Below, piece after piece: positions 33,469 through 56,238 of a stretch of DNA of 64,000 nt; positions within the stretch are counted from its first letter, which is position 1; each line of letters begins with the position of its first letter. The notes under the pieces are model-generated. The model had not been told where the DNA came from and made no database searches. It saw only the letters and a program-made list of their open reading frames with translations. A program made the translations under genes and the position numbers. This DNA comes from Deltaproteobacteria bacterium. GTDB taxonomy: Bacteria; Myxococcota; Kuafuiibacteriia; Kuafuiibacteriales; Kuafuiibacteriaceae. Location: assembly GCA_040218735.1 (NCBI GenBank), contig JAVJQW010000042.1, forward strand, positions 279,948 through 343,947, given 5' to 3'.

Positions 33469-34616
33469 TGCGTGTCTTCATCAGCGCGGGGGAGGCCAGC
33501 GGCGACGCGCTTGGCGCCGCGCTGGTTCGGGAGCTCAAGGCCCGGCGGCCGGATCTCATCGCTTACGGCATGGGCGGGCCGCGAATGCAGGCCGAGGGGT
33601 TCGAGGTCGTGAAGTCCTCGAACGAGCTGAACGTCGTGGGTTTGTTCGAGGTGCTACGGCACCTGCCGCGGCTGTTCCGCTTGCTCGACGAGCTCGCGCG
33701 CGCCGCCATCGCGGGGAAGCCGGACGTCGCGGTGCTGATCGACGTGCCCGACTTCAACGTGCGCCTCGCCCGGCGCCTCACGCGCGCGAAGGTTCCGGTG
33801 GCGGGCTACGTCGGACCGTCGGTGTGGGCGTGGCGCGCGGGGCGGACCAAGACGTTCAAGCGGTGGATGAACCGGATGCTGGTGCTGTTCCCGTTCGAGG
33901 TCGACGTTTGGCGCGACGCGGGGATGGACGTGGAGTGCGTCGGTCACCCGCTGCTCGACGAGGTGGCGCCGGCGCCGATCGCGCTCGCGAAGCCGCGGGT
34001 GGTGGCGTTGCTGCCGGGGAGTCGGCACTCGGAGATCAAGCGGCACCTCGAGGTGATGCTGCGGACGGCGAAGCGCCTGCGCGACGACGGGTTGGTGGAT
34101 CGCTTCGTCCTCCCCGTCGCGCCGACGCTCGACCTCGACGCGCTCGCCGCGCGCGTAGACGAGCACGGGTTGTCGGAGGTCGTGACGCTCGTGGAGGCGG
34201 ACGCCGAGGCGCGCCGGAAAGCGATCGCGGAGAGCTCCGTCGCGTTGGTGGCGAGCGGTACGGCGACGCTCGAGACCACCTTGGTCGGTCGCCCGCAGGT
34301 CATCTTCTATCGCGTGAACTGGCTGTCGTTCTGGATCGGCCGGATGCTGATGAAGGTGAAACACTTCGGCCTCCCGAACATCATCGCGGGGCGGGAGATC
34401 GCCCCGGAGCTGCTGCAGGGGGAGCTCAACGTCGACCGGCTCTACGGTGAGGCGCAGAGGCTCCTCGCCGACGAGCAGGCGCGGCAAGTTGCCTTGCAAG
34501 GGGTCGAGGAAGTGCGCGAGCGCCTCGGCGAGGCGCGTGCCGCCGCGCGGGCGGCGGAGGCGGTGCTGGCGATGGTGCCGGAAGCCCTCCCGGCCGGGGA
34601 TCACTCCGGACCGTAG
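33468..34616 (+). CDS. lpxB: Lipid-A-disaccharide synthase
   Basis: AGEASGD, IDVPDFN, PSVWAWR, VGHPL, LLPGSR, SGTATLE, LPNI, PELLQ. Confidence 0.96.
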   Translation: MRVFISAGEASGDALGAALVRELKARRPDLIAYGMGGPRMQAEGFEVVKSSNELNVVGLFEVLRHLPRLFRLLDELARAAIAGKPDVAVLIDVPDFNVRLARRLTRAKVPVAGYVGPSVWAWRAGRTKTFKRWMNRMLVLFPFEVDVWRDAGMDVECVGHPLLDEVAPAPIALAKPRVVALLPGSRHSEIKRHLEVMLRTAKRLRDDGLVDRFVLPVAPTLDLDALAARVDEHGLSEVVTLVEADAEARRKAIAESSVALVASGTATLETTLVGRPQVIFYRVNWLSFWIGRMLMKVKHFGLPNIIAGREIAPELLQGELNVDRLYGEAQRLLADEQARQVALQGVEEVRERLGEARAAARAAEAVLAMVPEALPAGDHSGP

Positions 34617-36782: not shown

Positions 36783-37487
36783 GTGCGCACCGTCATCTGC
36801 ATGCCCACGTACAACGAGCGCGAGAACCTCCCGTCGCTCCTCGAAGAGATCTTCGCGACCGTCGAGGGCGTCGACGTCATGGTCCTCGACGACAACTCAC
36901 CCGACGGGACGGGCGCCGCGGCGGATGGGTTGGCCAAGAAACACAAACGCCTGCAGGTCGTGCACCGGCCGGGGAAGGCCGGCATCGCCGCCGCGTACGC
37001 GGACGGGTTCGCGCGTGCGATCGAGCAGGGCTACGACCGCATCTTCCAGATGGACGCGGACTACTCCCACCAGCCGCGTTACCTGCCAAAGCTGATCGAG
37101 GCGCTCGACCGCGCCGACATGGTGATCGGATCGCGTTACGTGGAGGGGGGGCGCGTCGAGCAGTGGTCGGCGCCGCGTCGCCTGCTGTCGCGCGCCGGAA
37201 ACACGTACGCCAACACGCTCCTCGGGCTCCCCTACCGCGACGCGACGGCCGGGTTCTGCGGGTACCGCCGGCACGTCCTCGAGGCGATCGAGCTGGGGTC
37301 GAGCACGAAGGACAACCACGCGTTCCAGGTCGAGCTGAAGCTCCGCGTGCACGAGAAGGGCTTCACGATCGTCGAGGTGCCCATCGTGTTCTGGGACCGC
37401 GTGGTGGGGGCGTCGAAGCTGCCGCCGCGCGCGGCGCTCGGGTCGGCGATGCGGATCCTGCGCCTGCGTATCAAAGGCACCGACTGA
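36783..37487 (+). CDS. Polyprenol monophosphomannose synthase-like GT2
   Basis: PTYNEREN, DDNSPDGT, QMDADYSH, VIGSRYV, DATAGF. Confidence 0.92.
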   Translation: MRTVICMPTYNERENLPSLLEEIFATVEGVDVMVLDDNSPDGTGAAADGLAKKHKRLQVVHRPGKAGIAAAYADGFARAIEQGYDRIFQMDADYSHQPRYLPKLIEALDRADMVIGSRYVEGGRVEQWSAPRRLLSRAGNTYANTLLGLPYRDATAGFCGYRRHVLEAIELGSSTKDNHAFQVELKLRVHEKGFTIVEVPIVFWDRVVGASKLPPRAALGSAMRILRLRIKGTD

Positions 37488-37495
37488 ACCGCGAC

Positions 37496-38875
37496 GTGGA
37501 CAAGAGGGCCGGTCTCGTCGTCGTCGGCGCGCTCATGATCGCGGCGGCGTACTGCCTCCCGCCGGCGTTCGACGAGGTCTACTACTGGACCTGGGCGTCC
37601 GCTCCGGGGTGGACGTACTACGACCACCCGCCCGGCGTCGCGTGGGCGATCGCCGCGGCGCGTGTGGTGTTCGGCGACGGGCTCCTCGCGCTTCGTGTGG
37701 TCGGGCTCGGTGGTGCGGCGGTCGTTGCGGTCGCCTCCGTCGCGTCGGCGCGGCGCCTCGCAGACGATCCGCGCGATGCAAGCTACCTTGCGCTGCTCAC
37801 CCTCGCGGGCTCGATGATGTTCGTCATCGGCTACCTCCCGGCGACGCCCGACGTCGTCCAGGGGGCGGTGCTCGCGCTCGCCACACATGCGTTGATCCGG
37901 TCGCGGACCTCGCGCGTGGCGGCGGTGGTGGCGGCCGCGCTGTTCGTCGGAGGCATCGTCGTCAAACACTCCTCGGCGCTGGTGTTGATCGGCGTGGCGG
38001 CGACGCTCGTGATGCGCCGGCCGCGGGTGTTCAACTCGCCCTGGCCGTGGTTGGGCGCTGCGCTCGGCGCTGCGCTCCTCGTGCCGTGGTGGCTCGCGGA
38101 CACCGAGGGCTCGACCGCGTTCCAGGCGGCGCGCGTGTTCTCGGCGGCGAAGGTCCGCGGCGTGGTCGGGGTGCCGCTGACGGTCGGCGCGATGTTGCTG
38201 ACGCTCGGCGTGCCCTTCACGGTCGCGTTCTTCGCGCTGCCGATGCGCCGCCTCTCGGTGGTGGAGTCCGCGCTGACCGCCGGCGCGTGGTGCCTCGTGT
38301 TGGCGTGCGCGGTCGCGGCGTGGCTCGGGACGGGGGAGATCAACTGGGTAATGCCGGCTCTGGTCGTCGCGCTGCCGGTGGCCGTCGCGCGCCTGTCGGC
38401 GAAGCGTCGGAGGCTCTACGTCGTGGTGACCGCGGTGACCGCCGCGGTCTGGGCGGCCGGGCTCCTCCACATCGTCACGCCGTATCTCCCCCTCGAGCCC
38501 GCGAAGGACCGGACGCTCCGCTCCGCGGGGTTCGACGTGATCGCCGCCGAGGCCGAGGCGCTCGCCCGGACCCACGGCGCCGACACCCTCGTCGCGCGTC
38601 GCTACCAGATCGCGAGCATGATGCGGTTCTGGACCGCCGACCGGCTCGCCGTCTACGAGCTCGGGACCTCCCGCGAGAGCCAGTACGACCGGTGGCCGCG
38701 ACCGCCGCTTCGGGCGGGGGACCGCGCCGTGGTGGTGCTCCCCACCCAGCGCCTCCCGGACGGCCTGACGCCGATCGGCCCGGCGACGCGGGTCGAGCAG
38801 ACCCGAGCCGGCCGGGCCCTCGGCACGTACGTGCTCACTCCCGTCGTAGTCTCGGCGGAATTTACCCGGCAGTAA
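37496..38875 (+). CDS. GT-C (PMT/ArnT-family) membrane glycosyltransferase
   Basis: DEVYYWTW..YYDHPP motif and many TM helices. Confidence 0.85.
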   Translation: MDKRAGLVVVGALMIAAAYCLPPAFDEVYYWTWASAPGWTYYDHPPGVAWAIAAARVVFGDGLLALRVVGLGGAAVVAVASVASARRLADDPRDASYLALLTLAGSMMFVIGYLPATPDVVQGAVLALATHALIRSRTSRVAAVVAAALFVGGIVVKHSSALVLIGVAATLVMRRPRVFNSPWPWLGAALGAALLVPWWLADTEGSTAFQAARVFSAAKVRGVVGVPLTVGAMLLTLGVPFTVAFFALPMRRLSVVESALTAGAWCLVLACAVAAWLGTGEINWVMPALVVALPVAVARLSAKRRRLYVVVTAVTAAVWAAGLLHIVTPYLPLEPAKDRTLRSAGFDVIAAEAEALARTHGADTLVARRYQIASMMRFWTADRLAVYELGTSRESQYDRWPRPPLRAGDRAVVVLPTQRLPDGLTPIGPATRVEQTRAGRALGTYVLTPVVVSAEFTRQ

Positions 38876-38971: not shown

Positions 38972-38999
38972 ACAACAACTGACGTCCGCGCGCCGATAT
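38972..38999 (+). promoter_or_regulatory. Sigma-28-like promoter
   Basis: ACAAC-N15-GCCGATAT, 60 nt upstream of ATG 39059. Confidence 0.6.
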
Positions 39000-39058
39000 C
39001 CTACATAACCTGACAAGGTGCGAAGGTGTCGTACCAGTTCAGGTGACGGGCGGCACCG

Positions 39059-42000
39059 ATGGGATTCTTGAACCGAGCGCTGGGGTGGAGGCCGATTCGA
39101 ACGTCGGCCGTCGCGCCGACGCACGCTCGGCCCGCCGACCAGACGGCCGCCACGCCCGTCGCCCCGGTCGTCGTCGAGGGGGCGCCGTCCGAGCTGATCA
39201 GCCCGCACCGCCTGCGGCTGACGAACGACGACGGCGAGATCGTCACCCGACCGGCGAGCAACTACTACGTGCACGAGGACGGGAGCCGGCGCCCGATCGT
39301 CGACGACCTCGCGAAGCTCGTGCTCAGCCGCCCGGCCGAGGCGCAGCGAATGTTCGCCGACCGCATCACGCGGGCGCACGCCGACGCAGAGATGTCGTTC
39401 CGCGTGAAGGACCCCGAGACCGGCGCCTACGACAAGGTGTTCGAGGTCCCGTGTCACCCGAACCCCATCCCCCTCGAGCAGCGGCACTTCGACGCGCTCG
39501 TGGAGTCGACCGGCCCCGTGATGCGCTCGCTGCGCGAGCTGCTCCAGGTCTTCTACTCGAAGCCCGACGCCACCGCGGAAGACCTCGGCCTCGCCGACCT
39601 GCCCGCTGAGGAGCGCGACCGGTTGATGGAGACGATACGCGGGTCGGTCTACTTCGAGCCGAAGCTCGTCGACGCCAACATGGCCGACTACCCGTTCCTC
39701 TCCGTCGCCGGGTTCGACGCTGCCGTCGGTGACCTCGACGATCCGGATCCCATCTTCTTCGAGTTCAACCTCGGGACGCCGAGTGGACTGTCGAACAACA
39801 TCCAGCTCCTCGAAGTCCTGCGCGAGCAGGACCCCGAGATGTACGAAGTGCTCCGGCAGCGCCTCCCGAAGGACGAGACGTTCACGATCCTCGCGGATGC
39901 GATCCGCTCCAACGCAGAGGCGTGGACGAAGCGCCCCGACGGCATATCCGTCGTCATCGGCCCCGGCGTCGCGAACGGCGCGCACCCTGACGTCGCGTCG
40001 ATCGCACACTACTCCGGGATGCCGCTCGTGAACCCGAGCGACCTCTACGAAGACCACAACGGCGACATCCGGCTCAACACGCCGAACCTCGAGCCGCACC
40101 CGTACGTCACCGGCATCTACGGGCGCATGGAGGAGTCGTACTTCCTGCAGGACAGCGACGCCGGCTACCCGATCCGCGACCCGCACCTCGTCGACTCCGA
40201 AGCGCTGTCGAAGCGCCTCGGTGTGAAGCTCGAGCCCGGCATCCTCTACGACTTCGTCTACGACGAGCAGGACCCGGAGAAGATCGTCGACGTGAAGAAG
40301 GACGCCGAAGGGCGCCCGCAGCTCGCGAAGGTGTTCGAGTCGATCGGCCAGGACCCGGCGCGGCCCGACGCGAAGCGCGGCAGCTTCGCCGACGCGATCA
40401 AGAACCGAAAGCTCTACTACAGCGGTCTGGGCGGGCGCGTCGTCGATGACAAACGCGTGTTCCAGGCGATATCGCGCTACGTCGCTCCGCGCCACTTGCG
40501 CTCGGACGGTGAGCCCATCGCCCGGCCGCCGCGCACGCTCGACGTCTCCGAGTACGAGCAGTTCTATTCGAGCGAAGACCTCACGCGCTTCGTCGTGAAG
40601 GCGCCCGATCGCTCCGGCGGCGACGGCGTGATGTTGATGTGCAACCTCACCGAGGAGAAGCGCCGACAGGTCGTCGAAGAGGTCCGCGCGAACCCGTCGC
40701 AGTTCATCGTGCAGGAAATGGTGCCCTCGGCGGTGACGCTCTCGCCGGAGCGCGGTGAGGACGGCAAGCTCGGGCTCGGCTCGCTGATGACCGACTGGCG
40801 CATCTTCTCCGCGATGGACGCCAACGGTGATGTCCGTGCCGGTGCGAACTCACTCCTGCTGCGCGTGGCGAAGGCGGCGTCGGCGTCGACGAACACCTCG
40901 CAGGGTGGCGGCTACGGCCTCGGCACCGTGCTCGCGCCGCCCGGAGAAGGCGCGGTTCGCAAGCCCGGCGAGTCGCTGCTCCCCACGCCCCCGAAGCACG
41001 CGTTCCTGACCCAGTCGAAGGTCGACGAGCTCGACGAGTGGCTGAAGCTCTTCGCGTTGGTGCTCCAGTGGTCGGACCCGGAGGCGGGTAACGAGCTTCA
41101 GCCGATCGGGAACGCGACGTTCCTCGCGGATCGGCAGCGGGGCGTGATGGAGCTGCTCGGCCGCGACTTCGCGGACGTGATGCCGCTGCTGCGGCGCTAC
41201 GACAAGGGCGAGGAGACGCAGGAGACGGTGCACCTCACCCTGCTCGAGCTGCGCAACCGGCTCCTCGCGCACGACGACTTCCCGGTCGACGGGGTGCAGG
41301 CGATCATCCGCAACCACCTCGGCACGTACCTCCCGCCGCAGACCGCCAAGGTCGAGGGGCCCGCGCCGCAGCCGCGCACCGAGAGCCTCGCGAAGCTGAA
41401 GCTGACGGAGCTCGACTCGCCGCGCGCGATCTTCGAGGCCAAGTCCGGTGATGTGACTTCGGTTGTCTTCGAGACCGCGACGTACGCGGCGCCTCCCCCC
41501 GCGATCGTCGCGGCGAACGAGCGCCTCGCGAAGTTCGGCGGCGAGGTTCGCTTCGTGCGCGAGAAGATCGACGGAGCGTGGAGTGACTTCGCCGCGGCGC
41601 CGCACTTCCGGGTCGAGGACGGCGTCCCGTTCGTCGGGCTCGACGTTACGCAGCCGAACGCGACGTCCGCGCTCGCACACCAGATGGCGTACTTCGAGGT
41701 GTTCGAAGAGAGCGTGCAGTCGCTCGTGCGCGACGGGGTGGAGCCCGACCTCGCCGCGAAGATGGCGGGGGTGATGACGAAGGACGTGAGCCTGTGGGCG
41801 CGTGCGGAGCGGCGCGGCATCAAGGCGGCGATCGCGACGGACCTCGCGGACACCTCCGAGCTGAACCGCAGCGACTACTTCCGTCCGACGACCCCGCGCG
41901 ACCCCGGTTACGCATCGCGCGTCGGGCACGTCGACGTCGAAGCGATTCGTTCCGTGCTGTTCGCCGGGAAGGTCGACGGCGACCTCGACGTCAAGCTCGC

Positions 42001-42583
42001 GAAGGAGCACCTCAACCGCCTCGTTCACACCACGAAGAAGGCGAACGCGGCGCACCTCGACGTCCTGAAGGCGCGGGTCGCGACGGGGCGGCGCACGGCG
42101 TCTTCGTCGGCGCGGCTCCGCCGGATGCGCGACGAGGCCTCGATCCACGCGCTCGAGACCACGCCGCTGTTCGAGCTGTGCTTCGACGGCGCGGCGCGCG
42201 CGCGCTTCGAGGAGAACGGGACGCTCGACCAGCTCCGTCAGCTCTTCGACGAGGTCGTCGCGGAGCGTTCGCGACCGGCGCGGACGCGGGGCGCGATGTT
42301 CGAATCTCCGGCGTCGGTGCGGAACGGCCGCGACTCGATCGACGAGGCGCGTGACAACGATCCGACCTCCGTCGCGAGCCGCGTGCTGCTCGCGGGGATG
42401 AGCGTCGCGACCGGTGTCCAGGGTTACCAGTTCATCGCGGCGCCGCTCGTCGAGCAGACGATGTTCCAGAACGTGTCGCGCGAGCAGCGAGGCGAAGCGA
42501 AGCAGCACGATGGTGGCGCCATCCAGGTCGACCGGCACCTCGCGCAGCGCGAGAACGATGGGGGGCACGACCATGGGCCATGA
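39059..42583 (+). CDS. Circularly permuted type-2 ATP-grasp ligase fused to ~550 aa of extra C-terminal sequence
   Basis: FEFNLGTPSGLS, LVNPSDL, GIYGR, VVDDK, VVK...SGG.G, NPSQFIVQ, DWRIF, RVA....NTSQGGG match CP_ATPgrasp_2 motif order. Confidence 0.85.
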   Translation: MGFLNRALGWRPIRTSAVAPTHARPADQTAATPVAPVVVEGAPSELISPHRLRLTNDDGEIVTRPASNYYVHEDGSRRPIVDDLAKLVLSRPAEAQRMFADRITRAHADAEMSFRVKDPETGAYDKVFEVPCHPNPIPLEQRHFDALVESTGPVMRSLRELLQVFYSKPDATAEDLGLADLPAEERDRLMETIRGSVYFEPKLVDANMADYPFLSVAGFDAAVGDLDDPDPIFFEFNLGTPSGLSNNIQLLEVLREQDPEMYEVLRQRLPKDETFTILADAIRSNAEAWTKRPDGISVVIGPGVANGAHPDVASIAHYSGMPLVNPSDLYEDHNGDIRLNTPNLEPHPYVTGIYGRMEESYFLQDSDAGYPIRDPHLVDSEALSKRLGVKLEPGILYDFVYDEQDPEKIVDVKKDAEGRPQLAKVFESIGQDPARPDAKRGSFADAIKNRKLYYSGLGGRVVDDKRVFQAISRYVAPRHLRSDGEPIARPPRTLDVSEYEQFYSSEDLTRFVVKAPDRSGGDGVMLMCNLTEEKRRQVVEEVRANPSQFIVQEMVPSAVTLSPERGEDGKLGLGSLMTDWRIFSAMDANGDVRAGANSLLLRVAKAASASTNTSQGGGYGLGTVLAPPGEGAVRKPGESLLPTPPKHAFLTQSKVDELDEWLKLFALVLQWSDPEAGNELQPIGNATFLADRQRGVMELLGRDFADVMPLLRRYDKGEETQETVHLTLLELRNRLLAHDDFPVDGVQAIIRNHLGTYLPPQTAKVEGPAPQPRTESLAKLKLTELDSPRAIFEAKSGDVTSVVFETATYAAPPPAIVAANERLAKFGGEVRFVREKIDGAWSDFAAAPHFRVEDGVPFVGLDVTQPNATSALAHQMAYFEVFEESVQSLVRDGVEPDLAAKMAGVMTKDVSLWARAERRGIKAAIATDLADTSELNRSDYFRPTTPRDPGYASRVGHVDVEAIRSVLFAGKVDGDLDVKLAKEHLNRLVHTTKKANAAHLDVLKARVATGRRTASSSARLRRMRDEASIHALETTPLFELCFDGAARARFEENGTLDQLRQLFDEVVAERSRPARTRGAMFESPASVRNGRDSIDEARDNDPTSVASRVLLAGMSVATGVQGYQFIAAPLVEQTMFQNVSREQRGEAKQHDGGAIQVDRHLAQRENDGGHDHGP

Positions 42584-45338
42584 CGTCAGCCGTCTGAAGA
42601 GCGCGCGCTCGATCCCGGTCTCGTCCGCTACGGGGGAAGCGCCCGCGAACGCCTCGAAGGTCCTGCAGATGCCGGACGCGCCGGTGTCTCGACCCCGTCA
42701 CGTCGGTTGCTCGACCGATCCGTCGTCGCCGAACGGCGTCATCGGCGTGCGCGGGAAGAACCGCGGGACGCTCAACGGCAGCCGTGCGCTCCGCGCGCTC
42801 ACGGGTTTGGAGGGGCACATCTCGCGTCGCGACCTCGTCGCGCTCGGGGCGGTGCGCACCAAGCAGTCCGCGCTGGCCGGTCTGTCCGAGGCGCAGCTCC
42901 AGTCGCGCTTCGCGGAGCTGAAGTCGTTCGTGCGCGGTGACCGCAAGCGGATGGAGAAGGTCCTGCCGGAGCTGATCGCCGTCGCGACCACCGTCGCGCG
43001 CAAGACGCTCTCGCTGCCGGCGCGCGACGAGCAGATCGTCGCCGCGATCGCGATGGTGCGCGGCTCCGCCGTCGAGCTGTCGACGGGCGAAGGCAAGTCG
43101 CTCGCGGTGGGGCTCGCCGCGGCGGCGCTCGCGACCGAAGGCAAGGGCGTCCACGTGATGACCGCGAACCACTACCTCGCGGATCGCGACAGCGGTCAGA
43201 TGCGGGCGTTGTTCGACGGTCTCGGCCTCACGGTCGGCCTCGTCGCGGACGACCAGGGGCCGCAGCGGTACGAGAACAAACGCGTCGCGTACGCCGCCGA
43301 CGTCACGTACGGCGCGGTGTCGACGATGGCGTTCGACTGGCTCGAGGATCAGACGTGGTGGCGCAAGGAGTCGCGCGTGATGCGCGGCCAGCCGTCGGCG
43401 CTCGTCGACGAGCTCGACCACATCCTCCTCGACACGGCGGTCGAGCCGCTGGTCCTCAGCCGCTTCCCCACGGAGCACGAAACGATCGACCCGGTCGACG
43501 AGTCGCTGCTGAAGACCGCGAAGCAGATCATCGACGCGCTCGACGCCGACGATGTCACTGTCTACCTCGAAGGTGACATTCCGCGCCCGCAGCTGTCGGA
43601 GTCCGGCCTCGAGAAGATGGAACACGCCGCGCGCGACGTGCTCGGCCTCACGGGCGGCGAGTGCATCTGGGAAGAGCAGCACACCGAGCTCCTCGCCGAG
43701 CTTCGCCTCGCGCTCGAGGCGCGGTTCTCCGTGCGCCCGGGGCGCGACTACATCAAGCAGGACGGCGACATCGTCCTCGTGAGCCAGTCGACGGGGCGCC
43801 CGAACCCCGCCGCGCGCCTGCGGCACGGTCTCCACAACGCCGTGCGCGTTCGTGAGGGGCTCCCGCCCGAGAACAACGCCGTCCCGATCGCGATGGGGTC
43901 GTATCACCACTTCCTCCGCGCGTACGACTACATGACCGGGACGACGGCGACGGTGCACGGCGCGCGTCAAGAGCTGCGCGAGCTGCACGGCCTGACGATC
44001 ACGCGCATCCCGACGCACCGGGAGAACAAACGCGAGGACCTGCCGGATCGCATCTTCTCGCACCCCGCGGTTCGCGACGCGGCGGCGATCGCCGATCTGT
44101 TCAAGCGCAACGCGGACGGGCAGCCGGTGTTGATCTCGACGGTCTCCGTCGAAGCGTCGAAGCGCATCGCGAACCTCACGCGCGATCCGCTCGCGGCGCT
44201 CGCGGCTGCGGCGTGCTCTTCGTCCAAGCTCATGGCGATCGCTGGGGAGCTGATCGACGACGCCGACGAGCTCCTCGGTCGACCCGAGGCCCGCGGCGAC
44301 GACGAGCTGCGGTCGACGCTCTCCCACTCGCTCGCGGAGCGGATGCGGGAGGACCGCGCGGGCACGTCCAAGTTCGTCGCGTTCCTCGCCAAGCAGGGGC
44401 TCGATCTCTCGGTTCTGCTCGACCGCTCGGAAGGCCTCGCGCCGCAGGTGCTCAACGCCGAGAACCACGCCGCCGAGGCCGACATCATCGGCAGCGCCGG
44501 CGGGAAGGGCGCGGTCATCATCGCCACGCAGATGGCGGGCCGCGGCGCGCACATCCACGTCCCGGACGAGGTGCTGGAGCTCGGTGGTCTGCACGTCATC
44601 GGCGTCGAACGCAAGGAGAGCAGGCGGCTCGACCTGCAGGTGATCGGACGCTCCGGGCGTTGCGGCGAGATCGGCTCCAGCCAGTTCTTCGTGTCGCCGG
44701 CCGACGCGTTCCTCACGCACCTCGCGGCGAGTGACCGGCGCGCCCTCGCGCGGCGCCTCAGCGGCGATGAGCCCGAGCTGACGAACGGCGTCCGTCGCTT
44801 CTTCTTCTCGCGTACCGTGAAGCGCGCGCAGGAGCACGCGGAGATGCGCGCGGCGTCGATTCGCTACACCACGGCGCCGCTGGACGAGTCCCTCGAGCAC
44901 CAGCGCGCCGCGGTGCAGAAGTTCCGCAACGAGACGATCGAACACGCCGACCCGCTGGATCTCGTCCTCGGGTGGGTCCGCGAGCTGGCCATCGACGACG
45001 AGGCGCGGGTTCGCACGATGTTCGGGCTGGGCGACGCTCGGGGCGACGTCGCAGCGCTGATCCGCGCGCGCGTCGAAGCGCACGACGCCGCGAACGGCAC
45101 TTCGTCCGAGGCGTCGGCGGACTTCGTCCGCGACATGATCCTCAGCCACGTCGACGTGTGGTGGCTCGCGCAGCTGCACGAGCACGAGTCGCTACGCAGC
45201 ACCGCGTTCATGCGGACGCGGATGAACACCTGGGCGGACCACACGTTCGATACCGCCGAGGCGTTCGCCGAGATGTGCTTGCAGTTCCAGGATCAGACGC
45301 TGGAGCAGCTGGCGTTTCATCTGACCGGCGTGGCTTGA
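42573..45338 (+). CDS. Divergent SecA paralog
   Basis: STGEGKS, GKGVHVMTANHYLADRD, VDELD, GLHNAV..REG, GQPVLI, ATQMAGRG, GGLHVIG.ER.ESRR.D.Q..GRSGR; no SEC-C tail. Confidence 0.9.
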   Translation: MGHDVSRLKSARSIPVSSATGEAPANASKVLQMPDAPVSRPRHVGCSTDPSSPNGVIGVRGKNRGTLNGSRALRALTGLEGHISRRDLVALGAVRTKQSALAGLSEAQLQSRFAELKSFVRGDRKRMEKVLPELIAVATTVARKTLSLPARDEQIVAAIAMVRGSAVELSTGEGKSLAVGLAAAALATEGKGVHVMTANHYLADRDSGQMRALFDGLGLTVGLVADDQGPQRYENKRVAYAADVTYGAVSTMAFDWLEDQTWWRKESRVMRGQPSALVDELDHILLDTAVEPLVLSRFPTEHETIDPVDESLLKTAKQIIDALDADDVTVYLEGDIPRPQLSESGLEKMEHAARDVLGLTGGECIWEEQHTELLAELRLALEARFSVRPGRDYIKQDGDIVLVSQSTGRPNPAARLRHGLHNAVRVREGLPPENNAVPIAMGSYHHFLRAYDYMTGTTATVHGARQELRELHGLTITRIPTHRENKREDLPDRIFSHPAVRDAAAIADLFKRNADGQPVLISTVSVEASKRIANLTRDPLAALAAAACSSSKLMAIAGELIDDADELLGRPEARGDDELRSTLSHSLAERMREDRAGTSKFVAFLAKQGLDLSVLLDRSEGLAPQVLNAENHAAEADIIGSAGGKGAVIIATQMAGRGAHIHVPDEVLELGGLHVIGVERKESRRLDLQVIGRSGRCGEIGSSQFFVSPADAFLTHLAASDRRALARRLSGDEPELTNGVRRFFFSRTVKRAQEHAEMRAASIRYTTAPLDESLEHQRAAVQKFRNETIEHADPLDLVLGWVRELAIDDEARVRTMFGLGDARGDVAALIRARVEAHDAANGTSSEASADFVRDMILSHVDVWWLAQLHEHESLRSTAFMRTRMNTWADHTFDTAEAFAEMCLQFQDQTLEQLAFHLTGVA

Positions 45339-45353
45339 CGCGGCGAAGCCGCG
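45339..45353 (+). terminator. Hairpin immediately after the secA-like stop
   Basis: CGCGGC-gaa-GCCGCG. Confidence 0.4.
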
Positions 45354-45363
45354 GACGATTCGA

Positions 45364-45516
45364 ATTCTCATCCCCTGGCCCCGGTCTCGGCTTTCCGAGT
45401 TTTCGGTCTTCGGTGTTTGCGTTCATGGACGGACGCCCTAGGGCGCCCGCTTCAGTTCGCAGGATGTAGGAATTCAGGAAGTTGGAAAGCCGCGATGAGG
45501 GCCGGGGGGTGGGAAT
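45364..45516 (+). ncRNA. Candidate rod-like structured RNA (6S-like architecture possible)
   Basis: Arms 45364-45398 and 45482-45516 pair at 32 of 35 positions, including 5 G-U wobbles on the + strand; an inner stem closes on CGCC-ctag-GGCG. Confidence 0.55.
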
Positions 45517-45528
45517 GGGAACGGGACT

Positions 45529-48500
45529 TCACCCGGGATGCGGCGACGTATCGTCGCGCGGCGCATCCTGCGGCTCCGTCGGCGTCTCCGCCTCGCGCTC
45601 CGCCGCCGCCGCCGCCGCCGCCGCGCGCTCCGCCTCGACGTGCGCCTCTACGTCCGCGTCCGACACGATGTACGACGTCCAGTTCGACGGGAGGTTCAGG
45701 CGCTCCGCGATCTGCAGCCCCTCTTCGGTCTGGTTCCGCAGGTCCGGCACGCCGTTCACGAACAGTGCGATGCGGTACTGCGGGTCCATCGCGCTGCCGA
45801 TGTACGTCGACGGCGCGTGCCAGTTGAGGCGCACGTCGTGGGCGCCCCACACGAAGTCGGGCTCGCCGTACGTGAAGCCTTCGTTCAGGACGCGGCCGGT
45901 GCGCTCGTCGATCTGCATCCAGCCCGCGAACACCTTGTTCGTCCCGCCGAGGCCGGCCTGGAACACCATCTTGTCGCCCGCCTGCCGCTCGAGCGGTCCG
46001 CGGATGCCGACGAGGTCGGCCGACCCGCTGAACGCGGGGCGGTCCGCCCCCTGCGTCACGTACGTCTCGATCGAATCGATCCACTTCCGCGCGTTCGAGA
46101 TGCCTCGCGCGAGCGAGCCCTCGTTGACGTACACCCCCTCCGCGCGCTGCACGAAGCTGACGTAGTGCGAGAAACGCACGTCGTGCGGCGTCTCGCCCTG
46201 GATGTAATCGACCTCGTCCGCGCGGAACGTGATGTTCTTGCCGGTGGTGAGGTTCATCTGGAACTCACCCGCGAACGGCGCGTCCGCGGAGAACGAAAGG
46301 AAGCGCTCGGGCACCACCAGGTTCTCACCCGACTGCACCCACCCCGCGGGACGCTCGGCGACCGCGGCGTTGCTCTCCTGCACGGCCTCCAGCGTGTACC
46401 CGAACGGCGCGAGCTCCGGGCGATCCAACGCCTGCGCGATCGTGCGCGGCGCTTCGCCGCCGACCTCGACCTCGTGGGCCGGGATCTTCAGATCGAGCGT
46501 CGCGCCCTCGGGGAGCGCGACGCGATCCCACATGCGGAAGAACGAAGGACGCGCCTCGCGCGTCGCGGCGTCGATCGCAGCCGCGTCGTGCTCCGGCGTC
46601 GCGTGCGCCTCGAGGACCGAAGCCCAGGTGTCGCCCTCCGCGACCTCGTGCTGGACGTCGCCGTCGCCGATGCGGAGGTGCACCGTCGCGCCGACCTCGA
46701 GCTGCGGAATCACGATCGCCGTGAGCGCGTCGCGGTTCGCCTGGGCGACTCGGTTGTTGCCGACGATGTCGAACACCGCGAGCTGCTCCGCCACGGTGTT
46801 CCCGTCGGCCGCAACCGAAAGCGTGATCTCCGGAAGCGAGAGCTTCTCGTCCGGCAGCATCGTGTGCGCCGGGCGCGCGAGCACGTCCGGGTTCGCGCGG
46901 AGGAACTGCGACACCGTGACGTCGAGCTCGGCGAGGCCGAACTTCTCGTACTGCATCTGCAGCGTCTCACCCGGCTGCACGTCCTCGGCGGCGCGCTTGC
47001 GCCCCGGGTTCGCCGCGTCGGGATCCGAACCGAGCTCCGCCGCCGACCAGTCGAGGTGCGACAGATCCGTCACCGGCTTGCCGGACTTGCTGATGAAGTT
47101 CGTGCCGCTCTGGTAGATGACGCGAACCTCATCACCCTGGTTCATGATGAAGCGAACCTGGGCCGCGTTGATCGTCTGACCTTCCAGACGCAGCGAACCG
47201 AGGATCGGCTCACTCGGCGTGTTGTGGATCCGCAGCACGTCTTCGTCGATGAACCGGTGGTTCGTCTGCGTGAACGGCGATGGCGTGAACCCGACGAGCT
47301 CACCGAAGTTGGTGTAGATCGTCGTGCCCCGCTGCCAGCGCACTTCGGTCGCGTCGTAGCCGAACCGATAGCCACCATCGACCGGGTTCTGCGTTCCGCC
47401 GATCCCGGGCAGGTCCATGTACACGAGGTCGCGCGCGTCGTTCTTCGGGATCGCGACGAGCTCGCCACCGACGCGGATGTACACCTGACGGTCCGTCTGA
47501 CCGATGAACTCACGCGGCAGATCCGGGAACCGCCCGAAGAGCTGGTCCGACCCACCGTTGTCGTCGCACTGGCCCCAGTACCCGGTCTCGAGCGTCTGGT
47601 TCGCGTGGCCGTCGCCGAGCACACGGCCCGACGGCGTCTTCAGCAGACCGACCACTTCACTCGCCGGCACACTTTGGCCGGCGACCGGATCCGAGAACTG
47701 CAGCGACCAGTGCGCGGGCTCGCCGTCCTCTTCGTGAATCACGACCTCGACGTCGAGGCGCTGACCGTTGTCCGCGCGGACCACGTGTAGCTGCGTCGAG
47801 CTGTTCGCTTCGACCGCCTGACCGGTCGCGGTGATCGCGTCGATCGGGAACGTGAACCCGGGCTGCACGGGGAGCTCGCCGAGTCGAACGTCGTTCGCGA
47901 AGCCGTCGGCTCGCGACCCGACCTGGATCATCTTTCCGTAGTTGAGGCGGTCCAGCGGCGGCGACGCTTCGTTGAACGTGATCTTGTGGTGCCCGGAGGG
48001 CTCGCCGACCATGTACCCGAGCGACGGGAAGCTCTTGAGCTCCACCGCCGCCGGATCGCGACCGTCCGCCACGCGGATCCGGTCGAGCGCGACCATCCCC
48101 GAGGCGAGGTTCGACGTGCTCATCGACAGCCGCGTCGGGCTGGAGCGGTTGTCCGCCGCGCGGAACTCGGTCGGGAAGTCGTTCGGCTCGAAGCCCTTCG
48201 CGATCGCCTGCGCGAGGCCCATGCCGGAGCCGTTGAAGTCCGTCGCGAAGAACTGGAGCAGCGCGCGCGCGTCCGCGCCGAAGCGTCGCTCGTCGAAGAC
48301 CGGGAGCTTGAAGAACGCGTCGAGCAGCTCCTCCTGCACCTGATGTTTGATGCGATCGCCCGTCGCGAGCGCGGTGTCGTCCCACGCGTTGAGCGCGCGC
48401 CCGAACTGGTAGAGCAGGCAGGTCATTTCGTACTTGCGTTGCTCGAGCGGCGCACGCTCGTAGTGCCCGACCTGAGTGCCCAAGCCGTACTCCGTGCCGA

Positions 48501-49326
48501 TGCGCTCGGGGAGCCAGCGGATGGGCCAGGTGTCGATGATGGAGCGGTCGGTGCCCCACCACTCGGCGTCGGAGCACACGCGCACCTCGCCGGCGTCGAC
48601 CGGCGCGTGGTTCGGGTTGGCGCCGATCTCGACCTCGGGGAGGTTGAAGCCGGCGCGCAGTAGTGGCACCGCCTCCTGCGTGATGAACGCGGAGTGGCGC
48701 GGGTCCTCGAGCATGAAGCGAATCAGCGCGGAGTGACCGGCCGTCACCTGTATGGGACCGGCGCGATCCGAAGCGGAAGCGAGCCGCGTCCCGTCGAGGT
48801 CGTGGGTGCGTGCGTACTCGAGTAAGTGACCGACGCCCTCCGGCGTCAGCCCGTCGACCCCGCGGTGCGAAGTCCCGGGCGTGTCCGAGTCCCAGAAGAT
48901 CTTGAAGAGCGGATACTCCTCGGCGCGGCCCGGCTCGAACTCGACGCCGGTCTGCTGGATCGGCGCGGTCAGCTCGGACTCCACGACGACGGGCGTCCCC
49001 TGGTCGAGCCGCACGTAGTCCGCGTACGCGGGGACCGTCGCGCTCATCCCGGCCAACAGCGCGAGCCCCGCGCCCAGCCTTCGGAGCCGACCGCCGCCGA
49101 GCGCTCCGAAGATCGCCCCGCCGCCCGAGCCGGCCTTGCCGACCTGACGCTGCGCGTCATGCGTCGCGTTGCGACCCTTCCGGGTCGTGCCCGCCGAGCC
49201 CATCGGGGCCTGAGGCAACGCGCTCCCCTTGCGCTCGAGGCGACCGGGTGCGGAACCCTTACGGAGGTCCGTCGAAGCGGGCGTGTAGCCGCCGCGGGGG
49301 GAGTTGGGGACGATCGGTGATGCCAT
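45529..49326 (-). CDS. Large exported protein with extended signal peptide, transglutaminase-elicitor-like motifs and about four LysM-like repeats
   Basis: About 80 basic/Gly/Pro/Ser residues then LGAGLALLAGMSATVPAYA; YWGQC and PDFVW motifs; VQPGETL..FLRANP and EVAEGDTW-type repeats. Confidence 0.7.
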   Translation of the reverse strand: MASPIVPNSPRGGYTPASTDLRKGSAPGRLERKGSALPQAPMGSAGTTRKGRNATHDAQRQVGKAGSGGGAIFGALGGGRLRRLGAGLALLAGMSATVPAYADYVRLDQGTPVVVESELTAPIQQTGVEFEPGRAEEYPLFKIFWDSDTPGTSHRGVDGLTPEGVGHLLEYARTHDLDGTRLASASDRAGPIQVTAGHSALIRFMLEDPRHSAFITQEAVPLLRAGFNLPEVEIGANPNHAPVDAGEVRVCSDAEWWGTDRSIIDTWPIRWLPERIGTEYGLGTQVGHYERAPLEQRKYEMTCLLYQFGRALNAWDDTALATGDRIKHQVQEELLDAFFKLPVFDERRFGADARALLQFFATDFNGSGMGLAQAIAKGFEPNDFPTEFRAADNRSSPTRLSMSTSNLASGMVALDRIRVADGRDPAAVELKSFPSLGYMVGEPSGHHKITFNEASPPLDRLNYGKMIQVGSRADGFANDVRLGELPVQPGFTFPIDAITATGQAVEANSSTQLHVVRADNGQRLDVEVVIHEEDGEPAHWSLQFSDPVAGQSVPASEVVGLLKTPSGRVLGDGHANQTLETGYWGQCDDNGGSDQLFGRFPDLPREFIGQTDRQVYIRVGGELVAIPKNDARDLVYMDLPGIGGTQNPVDGGYRFGYDATEVRWQRGTTIYTNFGELVGFTPSPFTQTNHRFIDEDVLRIHNTPSEPILGSLRLEGQTINAAQVRFIMNQGDEVRVIYQSGTNFISKSGKPVTDLSHLDWSAAELGSDPDAANPGRKRAAEDVQPGETLQMQYEKFGLAELDVTVSQFLRANPDVLARPAHTMLPDEKLSLPEITLSVAADGNTVAEQLAVFDIVGNNRVAQANRDALTAIVIPQLEVGATVHLRIGDGDVQHEVAEGDTWASVLEAHATPEHDAAAIDAATREARPSFFRMWDRVALPEGATLDLKIPAHEVEVGGEAPRTIAQALDRPELAPFGYTLEAVQESNAAVAERPAGWVQSGENLVVPERFLSFSADAPFAGEFQMNLTTGKNITFRADEVDYIQGETPHDVRFSHYVSFVQRAEGVYVNEGSLARGISNARKWIDSIETYVTQGADRPAFSGSADLVGIRGPLERQAGDKMVFQAGLGGTNKVFAGWMQIDERTGRVLNEGFTYGEPDFVWGAHDVRLNWHAPSTYIGSAMDPQYRIALFVNGVPDLRNQTEEGLQIAERLNLPSNWTSYIVSDADVEAHVEAERAAAAAAAAEREAETPTEPQDAPRDDTSPHPG

Positions 49327-49387
49327 GGTGTGCCGCCACGGGTCCGTGACGTGGGGTTGTCCCGCGTCACCTGTAACCCTGTTTCAG

Positions 49388-49414
49388 TTATCGGACCGAG
49401 ACGTTCAGCGTTGC
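49388..49414 (-). promoter_or_regulatory. Sigma-28-like promoter
   Basis: Minus strand GCAAC-N14-TCCGATAA upstream of ATG 49326. Confidence 0.65.
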
Positions 49415-49535: not shown

Positions 49536-51344
49536 TTGAGCGCCTGGCGCCGTCTGTTCGGCTACCTCGCGCCGTACCGCGGCGCCCTCGCCGTCGCCGT
49601 CGTCGCCATGGGCGGCCTCGCCGTCACCAACGCGACCTATCCCATCCTCCTCGACCTGTTGACCACGATCCTGATCGGCGGCGACCGCCCCGAGGCCGTC
49701 GCTTCGACGTTGGATCGCGTCGTCGCCATCGCCAAGACGCTCGGCTTCGCGATCGAGACGAACCACGTCGCGGGTGTCGTCGCCGCGAACATCGTGCCGC
49801 TCTTCGGCGGGGTCGTCGCGGTCAAGGCGGTGTCCCAAGCGGTGCGCTTCTACGCGATGGGTTACATCGCCCAGCGCGTCATCCGTGATCTGCGAACGCA
49901 ACTCTTCGATCGCATCGTGAAACAGGGCGCGACGTTCTTCGGTGACTCGGCGACCGGACACCTCGTGTCGCGTGTGATGAACGACGTCGCGCAGGTCGAA
50001 CGCGCGACGACGTACGGCATCCCGATCCTCATCGGCGACGCGCTCCGCGTGGTCACCCTCGCGACCGCGTGTGTCGTGCAGTACCCGCGGCTGTCCCTCG
50101 TCGCGTTCGTCGTGCTCCCGGTCGCGGTGTTGCCGATCGTTCAGTTCGGCAAGGCGCTCAAGCGCTACGGCAAACGCGGCCAACACGCGCTCGGTGTGCT
50201 CACGAACCGCATCACGGAAACCCTCGGCGGCATCCGCGTCGTCCACACCTACGGGCGCGAGGGTTACGAAGTGCAGCGCTTCGATCGCGAGAGCGACCAG
50301 TACCTCGGCGTGATGATGAAGAGTGTCTTCGTGCGCGCGGTGCAGACGCCGCTCATGGAGCTCATCGGCGTCGTCGCGTTGCTCGCGACGATCGCCTACG
50401 CCGTCGACGAAGTCGAAGCCGGCACCCTACGCCCCGGCGCCGTCGTCGGGTTCATGCTCGCGCTGATCCTGATGTACGAGCCGGTCAAGGCGATCGGTCG
50501 TTTGAATGGAATCGTGATGCCGGGTCTCGCGGCGGCGGAGCGTGTCTTCGAGATCATCGATCGCGAGGCCGACGTCGTCGATCGCCCCGAAGCGAAACCC
50601 CTCGCCAAGGCCCCCGAGCTCGTCCGGTTCGAGAGCGTCTCGTTCAAGTACCGCGAAGACACACCGCTGGTGCTCGAGGGGCTCGACCTCGACCTCCCGC
50701 GCGGCCAGGTCGTCGCGCTGGTCGGGAGCTCCGGCGCCGGCAAGTCCACGGTCGCGGCGCTGCTCCCGCGCCTGTTCGACGTCACCGACGGCCGCATCAC
50801 GGTCGACGGCGAAGACATCCGCGACGTCACGCTCGAGAGCCTCCGCGCGAACATCGCGATGGTCGGCCAGGAGACGTACCTCTTCAACGACTCGGTGCGC
50901 GACAACATCCGGTACAGCCGCCCCGACGCGACCGACGAACAGATCGAAGAAGCCGCGCGCCGCGCCTACGCACACGACTTCATCACCGCGCTCCCCGACG
51001 GCTACGACACCATCGCCGGCGAGCGCGCGGTGCAGCTCTCCGGCGGGCAGCGCCAGCGCCTCGCCATCGCGCGCGCGTTCCTCCGCGACGCTCCCATACT
51101 GATCCTCGACGAAGCGACCAGCGCGCTCGACGTCGAGAGCGAGCGGGAAGTGCAGCGCGCGCTCGACGCGCTCCTCGAGAACCGCACCGCGCTCGTCATC
51201 GCGCATCGCCTCTCCACCGTGCAGCGTGCCGACGAGATCCTCGTGCTCGAAGGCGGCCGCGTCGTCGAGCGTGGCCGCCACGAAGCCCTCCTCGAGAACG
51301 ACGGTCCCTACCGGCGCTTCGTCGAGATGAGCGAACACGCCTAG
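49536..51344 (+). CDS. msbA: Lipid A flippase-type ABC transporter
   Basis: TMD plus NBD (GSSGAGKST, LSGGQRQR, LILDEATS, IAHRLST); adjacent to waaA. Confidence 0.85.
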   Translation: MSAWRRLFGYLAPYRGALAVAVVAMGGLAVTNATYPILLDLLTTILIGGDRPEAVASTLDRVVAIAKTLGFAIETNHVAGVVAANIVPLFGGVVAVKAVSQAVRFYAMGYIAQRVIRDLRTQLFDRIVKQGATFFGDSATGHLVSRVMNDVAQVERATTYGIPILIGDALRVVTLATACVVQYPRLSLVAFVVLPVAVLPIVQFGKALKRYGKRGQHALGVLTNRITETLGGIRVVHTYGREGYEVQRFDRESDQYLGVMMKSVFVRAVQTPLMELIGVVALLATIAYAVDEVEAGTLRPGAVVGFMLALILMYEPVKAIGRLNGIVMPGLAAAERVFEIIDREADVVDRPEAKPLAKAPELVRFESVSFKYREDTPLVLEGLDLDLPRGQVVALVGSSGAGKSTVAALLPRLFDVTDGRITVDGEDIRDVTLESLRANIAMVGQETYLFNDSVRDNIRYSRPDATDEQIEEAARRAYAHDFITALPDGYDTIAGERAVQLSGGQRQRLAIARAFLRDAPILILDEATSALDVESEREVQRALDALLENRTALVIAHRLSTVQRADEILVLEGGRVVERGRHEALLENDGPYRRFVEMSEHA

Positions 51345-51346
51345 CC

Positions 51347-52660
51347 GTGCACCTGTTCTATCAGCTCCTCAGCTACGTGGTGTTCGGCGCGCTGTGGCCG
51401 GTGCTGCTGCTGCACCCGAAGATCCGCCGCGGCATCAAGCGGCGCCTCGGGTTCTTCGACGTCCCCGAGCGACCGTGGCCCGCGTCGCGCTCGGCGGAGG
51501 GGCCTCGCGTGTGGTTCCACGGGGCCTCGGCCGGTGACCTGCTCGCGCTCTTCCCGGTGGTGAAGCAGATCCGCGACGCGCGCCCCGACGCGACGTTGAT
51601 CGTGTCGACGATGACGAACTCCGGGTACGCGATCGCCGAGACGAAGCTGATGCCGATCGTCGACGCGATCACCTACGTCCCGTACGACTTCCCCGGCTCC
51701 ACGCGCCGCACGGTCGAAGTGCTGCGACCGGACGTCCTCGTCCTCGAGTACGCGGAGCTGTGGCCCAACCTCATCCACGCGTGTCGACGCGGCGGCGCGC
51801 GCGTCGCGCTGACGAACGGGCGGCTGTCGGAGTCACTCGTGCGTCGGTACCGGCTCCTCAACGCGGTCGCCGGCAACCAGCTCGACAAACTCGACCTCAT
51901 GATGATGCGCGAGCCCGTCGAAGCGGAGCGCGCGCTCGCGCTCGGTGCGCCGCCGTCGCGTGTGAAGGTCACCGGCAACACGAAGTTCGACAACCTCCCG
52001 CAGGCGCCCGACGACGCGGCAATCGACGACCTGAAGCAGCGGCTCGGTGTCGACGATCGCCACGTGCTCGTCGCGGGCTCCACTCACGAAGGTGAGGAGA
52101 AGTCGATCCTCGGCGCGTTTTCCGGGATGCGCGAAGTCGACGCGACGGTGCGTCTGTTCATCGCGCCGCGCTACATCGAGCGCGCGGCGAAGATCGAAGC
52201 GCTCGCGCGCGCGGAGGGGTTCACGGTCGCGCTGCGGAGCGCGGCGGATCGTGATCCCAAAGCGATCGCCGCGGCCGATGTGTTGGTGCTCGACACGATG
52301 GGTGAGCTGTCGCGCGTGTACGGGCTCGCGACGTTGGTGTTCGTCGGTGGCTCGTTCGTCCCGCGCGGCGGACAGAACATCCTCGAGCCGGCCGGTCAGG
52401 GACGACCCGTGCTCTTCGGACCCTACATGATGAACTTCCGCGACTCGGTCGAGATCCTCCTCGGGCGCGGCGGTATTCAGGTGCAGACCCCCGCGCAGCT
52501 CGAGAAGATCGGACGCGAGCTGTTGTCGCGGCCCGACGAGATCGAGCGCCTCGGGGTCATGGCGCGCTCCGCGGTCCAGAAGGCGCGCGGCGCTTCCGCG
52601 AAGAACGCGCAGATGATCCTCGCTCTGCCGACGAGGCGTGACCGCTCACAGCCCTCGTGA
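51347..52660 (+). CDS. waaA: Kdo transferase
   Basis: WFHGASAGD, ELWPN, NGRLS, TGNTKFD, AGSTHEGE, DTMGEL, GGQNILEP; start GTG 51347. Confidence 0.93.
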   Translation: MHLFYQLLSYVVFGALWPVLLLHPKIRRGIKRRLGFFDVPERPWPASRSAEGPRVWFHGASAGDLLALFPVVKQIRDARPDATLIVSTMTNSGYAIAETKLMPIVDAITYVPYDFPGSTRRTVEVLRPDVLVLEYAELWPNLIHACRRGGARVALTNGRLSESLVRRYRLLNAVAGNQLDKLDLMMMREPVEAERALALGAPPSRVKVTGNTKFDNLPQAPDDAAIDDLKQRLGVDDRHVLVAGSTHEGEEKSILGAFSGMREVDATVRLFIAPRYIERAAKIEALARAEGFTVALRSAADRDPKAIAAADVLVLDTMGELSRVYGLATLVFVGGSFVPRGGQNILEPAGQGRPVLFGPYMMNFRDSVEILLGRGGIQVQTPAQLEKIGRELLSRPDEIERLGVMARSAVQKARGASAKNAQMILALPTRRDRSQPS

Positions 52661-56120: not shown

Positions 56121-56140
56121 AGGTGGGACTCCAACCGACG

Positions 56141-56168: not shown

Positions 56169-56238
56169 TTGGAAAGCGCGCGTGCTGTGCGCGTCGGGGT
56201 GAACGATCTCGGTAGGATACGGATCGTCGCAGGCTGGA

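Follow-up and report, generated by a model that had tools for sequence, protein, structure and literature searches.

We describe here three large open reading frames (ORFs) of a marine Myxococcota bacterium with a genome of 11.6 Mb, which lie side by side in the 64,000-nucleotide stretch of contig JAVJQW010000042.1 that was analyzed (hereafter the window; about 69% G+C; all coordinates without a contig name are those of the window). They encode a circularly permuted (CP) ATP-grasp ligase, a divergent paralog of SecA, and an exported protein whose predicted structure weakly resembles a papain/transglutaminase-like fold with LysM-like units. We favor the reading, with a probability of about 0.4, that the three proteins constitute a lineage-specific accessory export module resembling the SecA2-only systems, which is set inside a sigma-28-type regulon and serves leader-bearing exo-enzymes. 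In such a module, the SecA paralog would work with the single SecYEG of the cell as an accessory motor of the SecA2-only kind, and its clients would be those pre-proteins of the regulon which carry a long leader, often with the tetrapeptide PDAP at residues 29-34. The adjoining papain/transglutaminase-fold, LysM-like enzyme would be one of these clients, while the ligase protein, in which a peptidase motif has been lost, may act as a cytoplasmic modifier or adaptor of either the motor or the clients.

The ligase gene (39059-42583, forward strand, 1174 residues) and the gene of the SecA paralog (42573-45338, forward strand, 921 residues), both defined by ORF calls and Pfam matches, form one transcription unit, and the gene of the exported protein (45529-49326, reverse strand, 1265 residues), defined by its ORF call, is convergent to it. 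The frame of the SecA paralog is open from position 42414, but the ATG at 42573 gives a length of 921 residues that is matched by public gene calls, and overlaps the ligase gene, whose stop codon occupies 42581-42583, by 11 nucleotides. Both the overlap and the two convergent units had already been described in an earlier reading of the sequence alone (hereafter the sequence-only reading). Each unit is preceded by a promoter of the sigma-28/FliA type. That of the ligase-SecA operon (38972-38999, forward strand) reads ACAAC(38972-38976)-N16-CCGATAT(38993-38999) and lies 60 nucleotides before the ATG; that of the exported-protein gene (49388-49414, reverse strand) reads GCAAC(49414-49410)-N15-CCGATAA(49394-49388) and lies 62 nucleotides before the ATG. 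No sigma-70-like promoter was found in the cluster region.

The linkage of the three genes was followed in 40 relatives, designated G001 and onwards, with the source genome as G000 and the loci of the ligase family given L-numbers. The trio is adjacent in three genomes belonging to two genera, namely G000 and G001, which are of the same genus and share the gene order, and G006, which is of another genus. The order in G006 is changed, with the SecA paralog on the opposite strand, and the trio is flanked there by genes for a PAS histidine kinase and a GGDEF protein, and not by the lipid A genes that enclose it in G000 (32671-34616 and 49536-52660 of the window); it has either been relocated as a unit or been assembled twice. 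Furthermore, the SecA paralog of G006 (L022, G006:C1:462720-466886, reverse strand) is one frame of 1388 residues with a C-terminal extension of 430 residues, which is homologous to residues 695-953 of the ligase and has an intact HExxH motif, and the adjoining ATP-grasp gene has lost that motif. Among the aligned homologs of the ligase, HExxH is present in the C-terminal domain in 13 of the 15 rows that cover the site, and is replaced by HQMAY in the ligase of the window and by STVEK in G006; the ligase of G001, examined separately, has HQVAY, so that the motif is lost in exactly those genomes in which ligase and paralog are adjacent (3/3, versus 0/13 of the others). Finally, all five genomes that carry the paralog (G000, G001, G006, G008 and G011) also contain both the ligase family and the exported-protein family, although these genomes are relatives and the counts are not independent.

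The survival of adjacency through rearrangement and relocation, the fusion of the paralog to a ligase-type domain, the coincidence of HExxH loss with adjacency and the restriction of the paralog to genomes holding both other families are also the four observations that speak against a simpler explanation. According to the latter, the three genes are merely co-regulated, independently working members of a sigma-28-type regulon of about 64 units, and their adjacency in two genera is a side effect of common regulation or shared ancestry; on this view the ligase/HExxH protein is a bifunctional enzyme complete in itself, the SecA paralog serves some purpose of its own, and the exported enzyme leaves the cell by the ordinary Sec route. 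We consider this quite possible, at something like one chance in three. It is supported by the size and spread of the regulon, by the solitary ligase loci and the dispersed genes of G008 and G011, all described below, and by the exported protein, which has a normal hydrophobic (H) region and an AxA site.

The two matching promoters, which the sequence-only reading took to bracket the cluster, are indeed present, but they are not private to it. Genome-wide, GCAAC-Nx-CCGATA has 30 matches at N15 and 23 at N16, as against 0-2 at each of N11-14 and N17-20, and because of this sharp specificity for spacing the motif stands far above chance. Other words in the -35 position (TAAA, GAAC and others) produced no spacing peak at N15/16, and TAAA-N15/16-CCGATA has no match at all in the genome. 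The wider form, [GA]CAAC-N15/16-CCGATA, occurs at 64 sites in G000, and at 63 of the 64 sites an ORF with coding-type codon bias starts a few to about 300 nucleotides downstream. When the forward motif was compared with a reversed control in G000, the counts were 53 versus 1. The first in-frame start lies within 15 nucleotides of the -10 element in 35 of these 63 genes, a count to be read with the preference of the ORF caller for short distances in mind, and this hints at leaderless or near-leaderless messenger RNAs. The assignment to the sigma-28 class is borne out by the -10 element CCGATA(A/T), by the spacer of 15-16 nucleotides and by the presence of genes for FliA-family sigma factors, but not by the -35 element, which is GCAAC rather than TAAA or TTAAG. 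Three FliA/WhiG-like sigma factors were found with the model TIGR02479 (cut-off 189.6 bits), at 198.9 bits on contig C59, 188 bits on C6 and 160 bits on C45. The gene with the last of these scores (C45:32405-35617) is flanked on both sides by motif-bearing genes, and its product, possibly with an adjoining anti-sigma factor, is a candidate reader of the motif.

Of the 60 downstream proteins that were scanned, 43 belong to no Pfam family. The remainder include a calpain-type protease, a matrixin, proprotein-convertase P and PPC domains, NlpC/P60, PG_binding_1, a PLD-like protein, an esterase and DUF3626, and none of the 60 matched a flagellar family. The motif is also enriched over its reversed control in several relatives (G001, 41 versus 0; G006, 39 versus 0; G008, 34 versus 0; G011, 43 versus 4; G012, 34 versus 6; G039, 60 versus 1; G023, 45 versus 4), and is not enriched in others (G003, 10 versus 9; G005, 1 versus 1). 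In G001 and G011 it also precedes the orthologs of the exported protein, and in G011 it lies upstream of the SecA paralog as well. A CCGATA element lies 35-70 nucleotides before the ORF at 5 of 20 ligase loci in other genomes, combined with the -35 words TTAA, CTAAC or TAAA in three loci of the Bdellovibrionota type and with GCAAC-N16 in L033. A regulon so large, and so widespread in the phylum as the counts for G039 and G023 indicate, is what independent, co-regulated genes would lead one to expect. G000 also contains three flagellin-N matches and seven matches to FHIPEP (FlhA/SctV), six of them full length (on contigs C23, C59, C41, C70, C38, C9 and C16); one FHIPEP gene (C23:323241) adjoins a regulon gene (C23:320866-322089), and another lies by the best FliA match on C59.

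The SecA paralog matches SecA_DEAD (208 bits), P-loop_SecA (130 bits), SecA_PP_bind (45 bits) and SecA_SW (34 bits), all above the cut-off. It has the complete NBD1-PPXD-NBD2-HSD/HWD architecture, and its Walker A (GEGKS), DELD and GRSGR motifs are kept. Nevertheless, it falls short of the models for canonical SecA (TIGR00963, 417 bits with a cut-off of 800; PRK12904, 422 with a cut-off of 814) as well as of those for SecA2 (TIGR03714, 388/930; TIGR04221, 325/725; TIGR04397, 394/1085; NF012136, 298/1100 bits). The sequence-only reading depended on this not being the only secA of the genome, and a separate canonical secA does lie on contig C70, which scores 446 bits on SecA_DEAD versus 210 for the paralog. 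The absence of SecY2, noted in the same reading, is also confirmed, as secY occurs at a single locus; two SecA loci together with one SecY fit the SecA2-only layout. In an alignment that includes the canonical SecA and four paralogs, the protein shows an insert of about 85 residues in NBD2 and an N-terminal extension of about 90 residues. It ends after the scaffold helices and has no C-terminal zinc tail, a comparison that leans partly on the general anatomy of SecA, since the canonical gene used in the alignment is truncated at the 3' end. In G000 and G001, FMRT takes the place of LRGY at the tip of the two-helix finger, with a two-residue deletion, and G008 and G011 keep AY at this site. Homologs of the paralog in the carrier genomes score 305-1356 bits against it, versus about 150-207 bits for canonical SecAs. 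Six further genomes (G004, G010, G021, G029, G040 and G050) have two SecA copies, both of which score as canonical, unlike the divergent paralog. A match to the Rfam family Cis52 inside the SecA-like gene (35 bits, threshold 56) was judged to be due to chance.

The evidence for a distinct class of clients comes from the N-termini of the regulon proteins. At least 8 of the 63 carry an extension of 50-85 residues, rich in P, A, R and K, before a signal-like H-region, and PDAP occurs at residues 29-34 in five regulon proteins, among them the SecA paralog itself, where it occupies residues 34-37 (PEAP at 35-38 in G001, RDAP at 28-31 in G006). Within residues 25-40, PDAP is found in 5 of 64 regulon proteins versus 9 of 6184 background proteins, with no enrichment at residues 41-90, but the test was post hoc, the motif having been noticed in the very set in which it was counted, and the N-termini of the background proteins are uncertain. 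Three of the nine background cases resemble further members of the leader class. The G+C content at third codon positions is 0.78-0.90 in the leaders, as in coding sequence, and their PDAP codons differ synonymously; therefore, the leaders are translated. Homologs of the exported protein have a leader and an H-region in G001, G006 and G011, where the paralog is present, and have nothing ahead of the conserved domain in G009, G012 and G002, where it is not. Similarly, ORFs of the leader type follow the motif in at least 3 of 30 cases in G011, which has the paralog, versus 0 of 28 in G012, which lacks it, although both of these trends are small and are drawn from related genomes. An extended form of the favored reading, which we think rather unlikely, would see here a new accessory Sec route that marine Myxococcota, as diderms, have evolved. 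In this route, the exo-enzymes of the sigma-28-type regulon would have a conserved leader of about 60 residues ('LxxPDAP' at residues 29-34) ahead of their signal peptides, and would be exported to attack other cells by a dedicated SecA2-like motor, with its own copy of the leader as a pseudo-substrate or co-localization tag, together with an ATP-grasp ligase whose peptidase domain has turned into a non-catalytic adaptor. In a bolder variant, the SecA paralog itself would be delivered to prey and would jam the translocon there.

The PDAP leader on the SecA paralog fits cargo as well as it fits a motor. The paralog, and perhaps also the ligase, could be exported effectors derived from housekeeping enzymes and directed at prey or competitors, with the PDAP leader as a common signal for export or sorting, possibly read by one of the many type-III-type gates of the genome. 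The position-fixed leader which the paralog shares with secreted regulon proteins (also as PEAP in G001 and RDAP in G006) agrees with this, as do the disordered N-terminal extensions of 40-100 residues in all three proteins, the lack of a signal peptide in most regulon proteins, the predominance of proteins without a Pfam family among them (43/60) with proteases, NlpC/P60, a PLD-like protein and an esterase in the rest, the seven FHIPEP matches in the genome, and the degenerate tip of the translocation finger in G000 and G001. However, those leader proteins which have H-regions resemble Sec substrates, the conserved ATPase motifs and whole SecA architecture fit a working motor, and just one regulon site lies beside a FHIPEP gene. 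On balance, we regard export of the paralog as cargo as improbable. The alternative already offered by the sequence-only reading, a cluster of co-regulated effectors derived from housekeeping enzymes, is a live rival to the accessory export module.

The exported protein of 1265 residues begins with a leader of about 80 residues and continues with an H-region that ends in AYA/DY at residues ~80-102, so that leader and signal peptide together span about 100 residues, in agreement with the very long signal region first ascribed to it. Its conserved core contains the invariant motif GYWGxCDDN with Cys587; three LysM-like beta-beta-alpha-alpha units are placed at residues ~790-1000, and a conserved C-terminal domain at ~1010-1225. 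The family is rare: there are 9 close homologs, and a search of 1.84 billion representatives yielded 48 clusters at E<=0.001. In the close homologs, a variable basic leader of 60-100 residues gives way to a hydrophobic stretch rich in Gly and then to an H-region with AxA, after which the mature protein starts with an invariant DYV. A twin-arginine (Tat) signal was considered and rejected, as the RR pair is not kept across the family. The protein has no Pfam or NCBIfam match. Its confident structure model weakly resembles the GP42 transglutaminase of Phytophthora sojae (3TW5) and LysM, and Cys587, invariant in the family, is placed at the start of a helix, which is the usual position of papain-like catalytic cysteines.

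The transglutaminase/LysM label of the sequence-only reading is therefore plausible at the level of the modeled fold, but it finds no support in the sequence of the protein itself. No transglutaminase family matched at E up to 5, a profile search against Protein Data Bank (PDB) sequences returned nothing, and among 43 family members gathered at E up to 0.1 a single one has a TGL match (E 0.096). The gathering score of LysM (PF01476) is not reached by the exported protein and is reached by 1 of the 43 homologs. Foldseek gave no match against the PDB at E<=0.001, and no classical transglutaminase, NlpC/P60 or amidase chain is among the 50 fold matches listed, which does not exclude such a relationship. 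A search of the ESM Atlas with residues 104-780 gave no usable match, and a metagenome scan with the family alignment gave 252 pattern matches, none of which was confirmed. The C-terminal domain (~1010-1225, with the motifs GETPxD, NEGF and STYIG) also occurs by itself in short proteins of 150-470 residues (P0024, P0026, P0034, P0035 and P0037-P0041), and therefore is an independent module.

The ligase protein was correctly placed in the peptide-ligase family by the sequence-only reading, since it matches CP_ATPgrasp_2 (PF14403) with 69.4 bits, above the gathering cut-off of 32, and has the circularly permuted ATP-grasp fold. A disordered segment (residues 1-42) is followed by the CP-ATP-grasp region (~64-626), a four-helix bundle (647-753), an alpha/beta and helical C-terminal domain (~780-1072) and a disordered tail (1073-1174); no convincing fold or profile match was found for the C-terminal domain. 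The family was found at 22 loci, all in metagenome-assembled genomes of Myxococcota or Bdellovibrionota and all encoding ATP-grasp/HExxH proteins of 1000-1150 residues, and no neighboring gene recurs across these 22 loci. Matches to FlgM in 2 of 18 homologs (20.0 and 16.7 bits, cut-off 25) cover 31 residues inside the ATP-grasp domain and were judged to be due to chance.

The neighborhood of a CP-ATP-grasp ligase and a protein with a weak fold match to the GP42 transglutaminase recalls the CP-ATP-grasp/alpha-E/transglutaminase/Anbu system, and the locus could be a variant of it, in which ligase and transglutaminase-fold protein share a substrate and the SecA paralog is incidental. In line with the absence of alpha-E stated at the outset, a Pfam scan of the ligase and of 15 ORFs around it gave no match to alpha-E, Anbu or a COG1305-type transglutaminase. 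Moreover, the transglutaminase-fold protein is exported whereas the ligase has no signal peptide, the two families occur together at only 1 of 21 ligase loci elsewhere, and the structural resemblance is to GP42 rather than to the COG1305-type domain that belongs to the classical system. Such a variant is accordingly a very remote prospect.

Several lines of evidence weigh against the accessory export module that we favor. The 21 ligase loci of other genomes (L031-L051) were inspected with up to 10 kb of flank on each side, and less on short contigs, and at 20 of them there is neither a SecA-like nor an exported-protein homolog near the ligase, the exception being L037, which is the G006 locus. 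The divergent SecA paralog was absent from all 10 ligase genomes searched, which have canonical-scoring SecA only (one of them in two copies). The trio is scattered among housekeeping or unrelated genes in G008 and G011. Conversely, the exported-protein family occurs without the SecA paralog in G002, G009, G010, G012, G028, G037 and G038, and in at least six of these (all but G009) it occurs without either partner, and frequently lacks a signal peptide; in G009, the genome of which is 91% complete, the ligase and exported-protein families are present but no paralog was found. The copy of the exported protein examined in G008 also has no signal peptide, despite the presence of the paralog. With regard to the motor, the paralog scores far below every curated SecA and SecA2 cut-off, and the deletion of GY at the finger tip is accompanied by a change of the motif V Asp to His, both only in G000 and G001. 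The leader on the paralog itself, the post hoc nature of the PDAP count and the relatedness of the compared genomes add to these reservations. The sequence-only reading would have been refuted if the three genes never occurred together in related genomes, and this is not the case, as they are adjacent in three genomes of two genera; the solitary ligase loci and the dispersal in G008 and G011 suit independent, co-regulated genes. The dedicated modify-and-export module which it envisaged is partly supported: adjacency, co-presence in five of five genomes and the G006 fusion argue for such a module, while the 64-site regulon, the stand-alone ligase loci and the dispersal argue against it.

Between the convergent genes lies an imperfect inverted repeat (45356-45523) that folds into a rod-like hairpin of -104.7 kcal/mol, with z-scores of -5.3 on the forward and -4.0 on the reverse strand. 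The rod-like structure listed among the components by the sequence-only reading is therefore real, but it is not conserved in the sister genome G001, where the intergenic sequence is mostly different and the z-score relative to shuffled sequence is -0.68, and this counts against a dedicated module. It belongs to no Rfam family, and an origin as a mobile repeat is ruled out by its single copy in the genome. A terminator-like stem (45386-45399) followed by a T-run lies inside it, and we infer that the hairpin would act as a bidirectional terminator rather than as a separate component.

On one side the three genes adjoin a gene for a PMT_2 glycosyltransferase (37163-38875), on the other an msbA-like ABC gene (49536-51344). 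According to the Pfam scan, the trio has lpxA and lpxB upstream of it, with kdtA and lpdA on the downstream side; the host, with lpxA, lpxB and kdtA flanking the trio, therefore makes lipid A, as the sequence-only reading had stated. A third copy of the promoter motif in the window (GCAAC-N16-CCGATAA, at ~56140-56170, reverse strand) precedes an ORF of 162 residues (55632-56120, reverse strand) that belongs to no Pfam family.

Each component has relatives among known systems, from which it also departs. GP42 carries an unusual 'CH' motif according to PMC10318531, whereas the exported protein has 'CD', has no relation to GP42 at the sequence level, and exceeds it greatly in size, having LysM-like repeats and a further domain at the C-terminus. 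The structural kin of the ligase are 3N6X (Mfla_0391), glutathione synthetase and glutathionylspermidine synthetase/amidase; unlike these CP-ATP-grasp ligases, it comprises 1174 residues and has a helical bundle and a degenerate HExxH-type C-terminal domain with an unmatched fold.

Accessory SecA2 systems are known and have been studied in monoderm bacteria. The SecA2-only systems of mycobacteria, Listeria and Clostridioides (models TIGR04221, NF012136 and TIGR04397) resemble the present case in the second, divergent SecA beside a canonical one, the single SecY and the missing C-terminal tail, and here, too, export of a subset of proteins is presumed. The present paralog differs from them in its diderm Myxococcota host, its scores far under all SecA2 cut-offs, its 85-residue NBD2 insert, PDAP leader of about 90 residues and altered finger tip, as well as in its translational coupling to an ATP-grasp ligase and its sigma-28-type promoter. 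The accessory Sec (aSec) systems, composed of SecA2, SecY2, Asp and Gtf proteins, export serine-rich adhesins with signal peptides of about 90 residues. They share with the present cluster the lengthened signal peptides, in which the long N-region contains a conserved motif, and the gene for a cytoplasmic modifying enzyme beside the accessory SecA; however, SecY2 is missing here, as are genes for Asp proteins or a glycosyltransferase in the cluster, an ATP-grasp ligase takes the place of the modifying enzyme, and the candidate clients are of the hydrolase type rather than serine-rich repeat adhesins. A literature search surfaced nothing on such a SecA paralog or such a regulon in Myxococcota, which is not proof of absence. 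If the favored reading is correct, a motor of the SecA2-only type in a lipid A-producing diderm would extend what is known of Sec specialization, its connection with an amide ligase and leader-bearing exo-enzymes by operon, fusion and promoter class would add to its interest, and the PDAP leader would provide a testable handle on the choice of clients.

The regulon has its closest counterpart in Bdellovibrio bacteriovorus, for which PMC3627812 gives TTAAG-N16-CCGATA at 92 of 140 attack-phase promoters and proposes that FliA globally regulates the attack phase, with proteases, surface proteins and many unknowns among its targets in addition to flagella. The 64 sites described here agree with it in the -10 element and the spacing, and the mix of genes is similar, but GCAAC stands in the -35 position in place of TTAAG or TAAA, and the 60 scanned proteins include no flagellar family. 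A FliA-type regulon of about 64 promoters, directing mostly unknowns and hydrolases, thus parallels the attack-phase regulon of Bdellovibrio, and the ligase family is common to Myxococcota and Bdellovibrionota. Together, these findings indicate that the two lineages share a regulatory logic.

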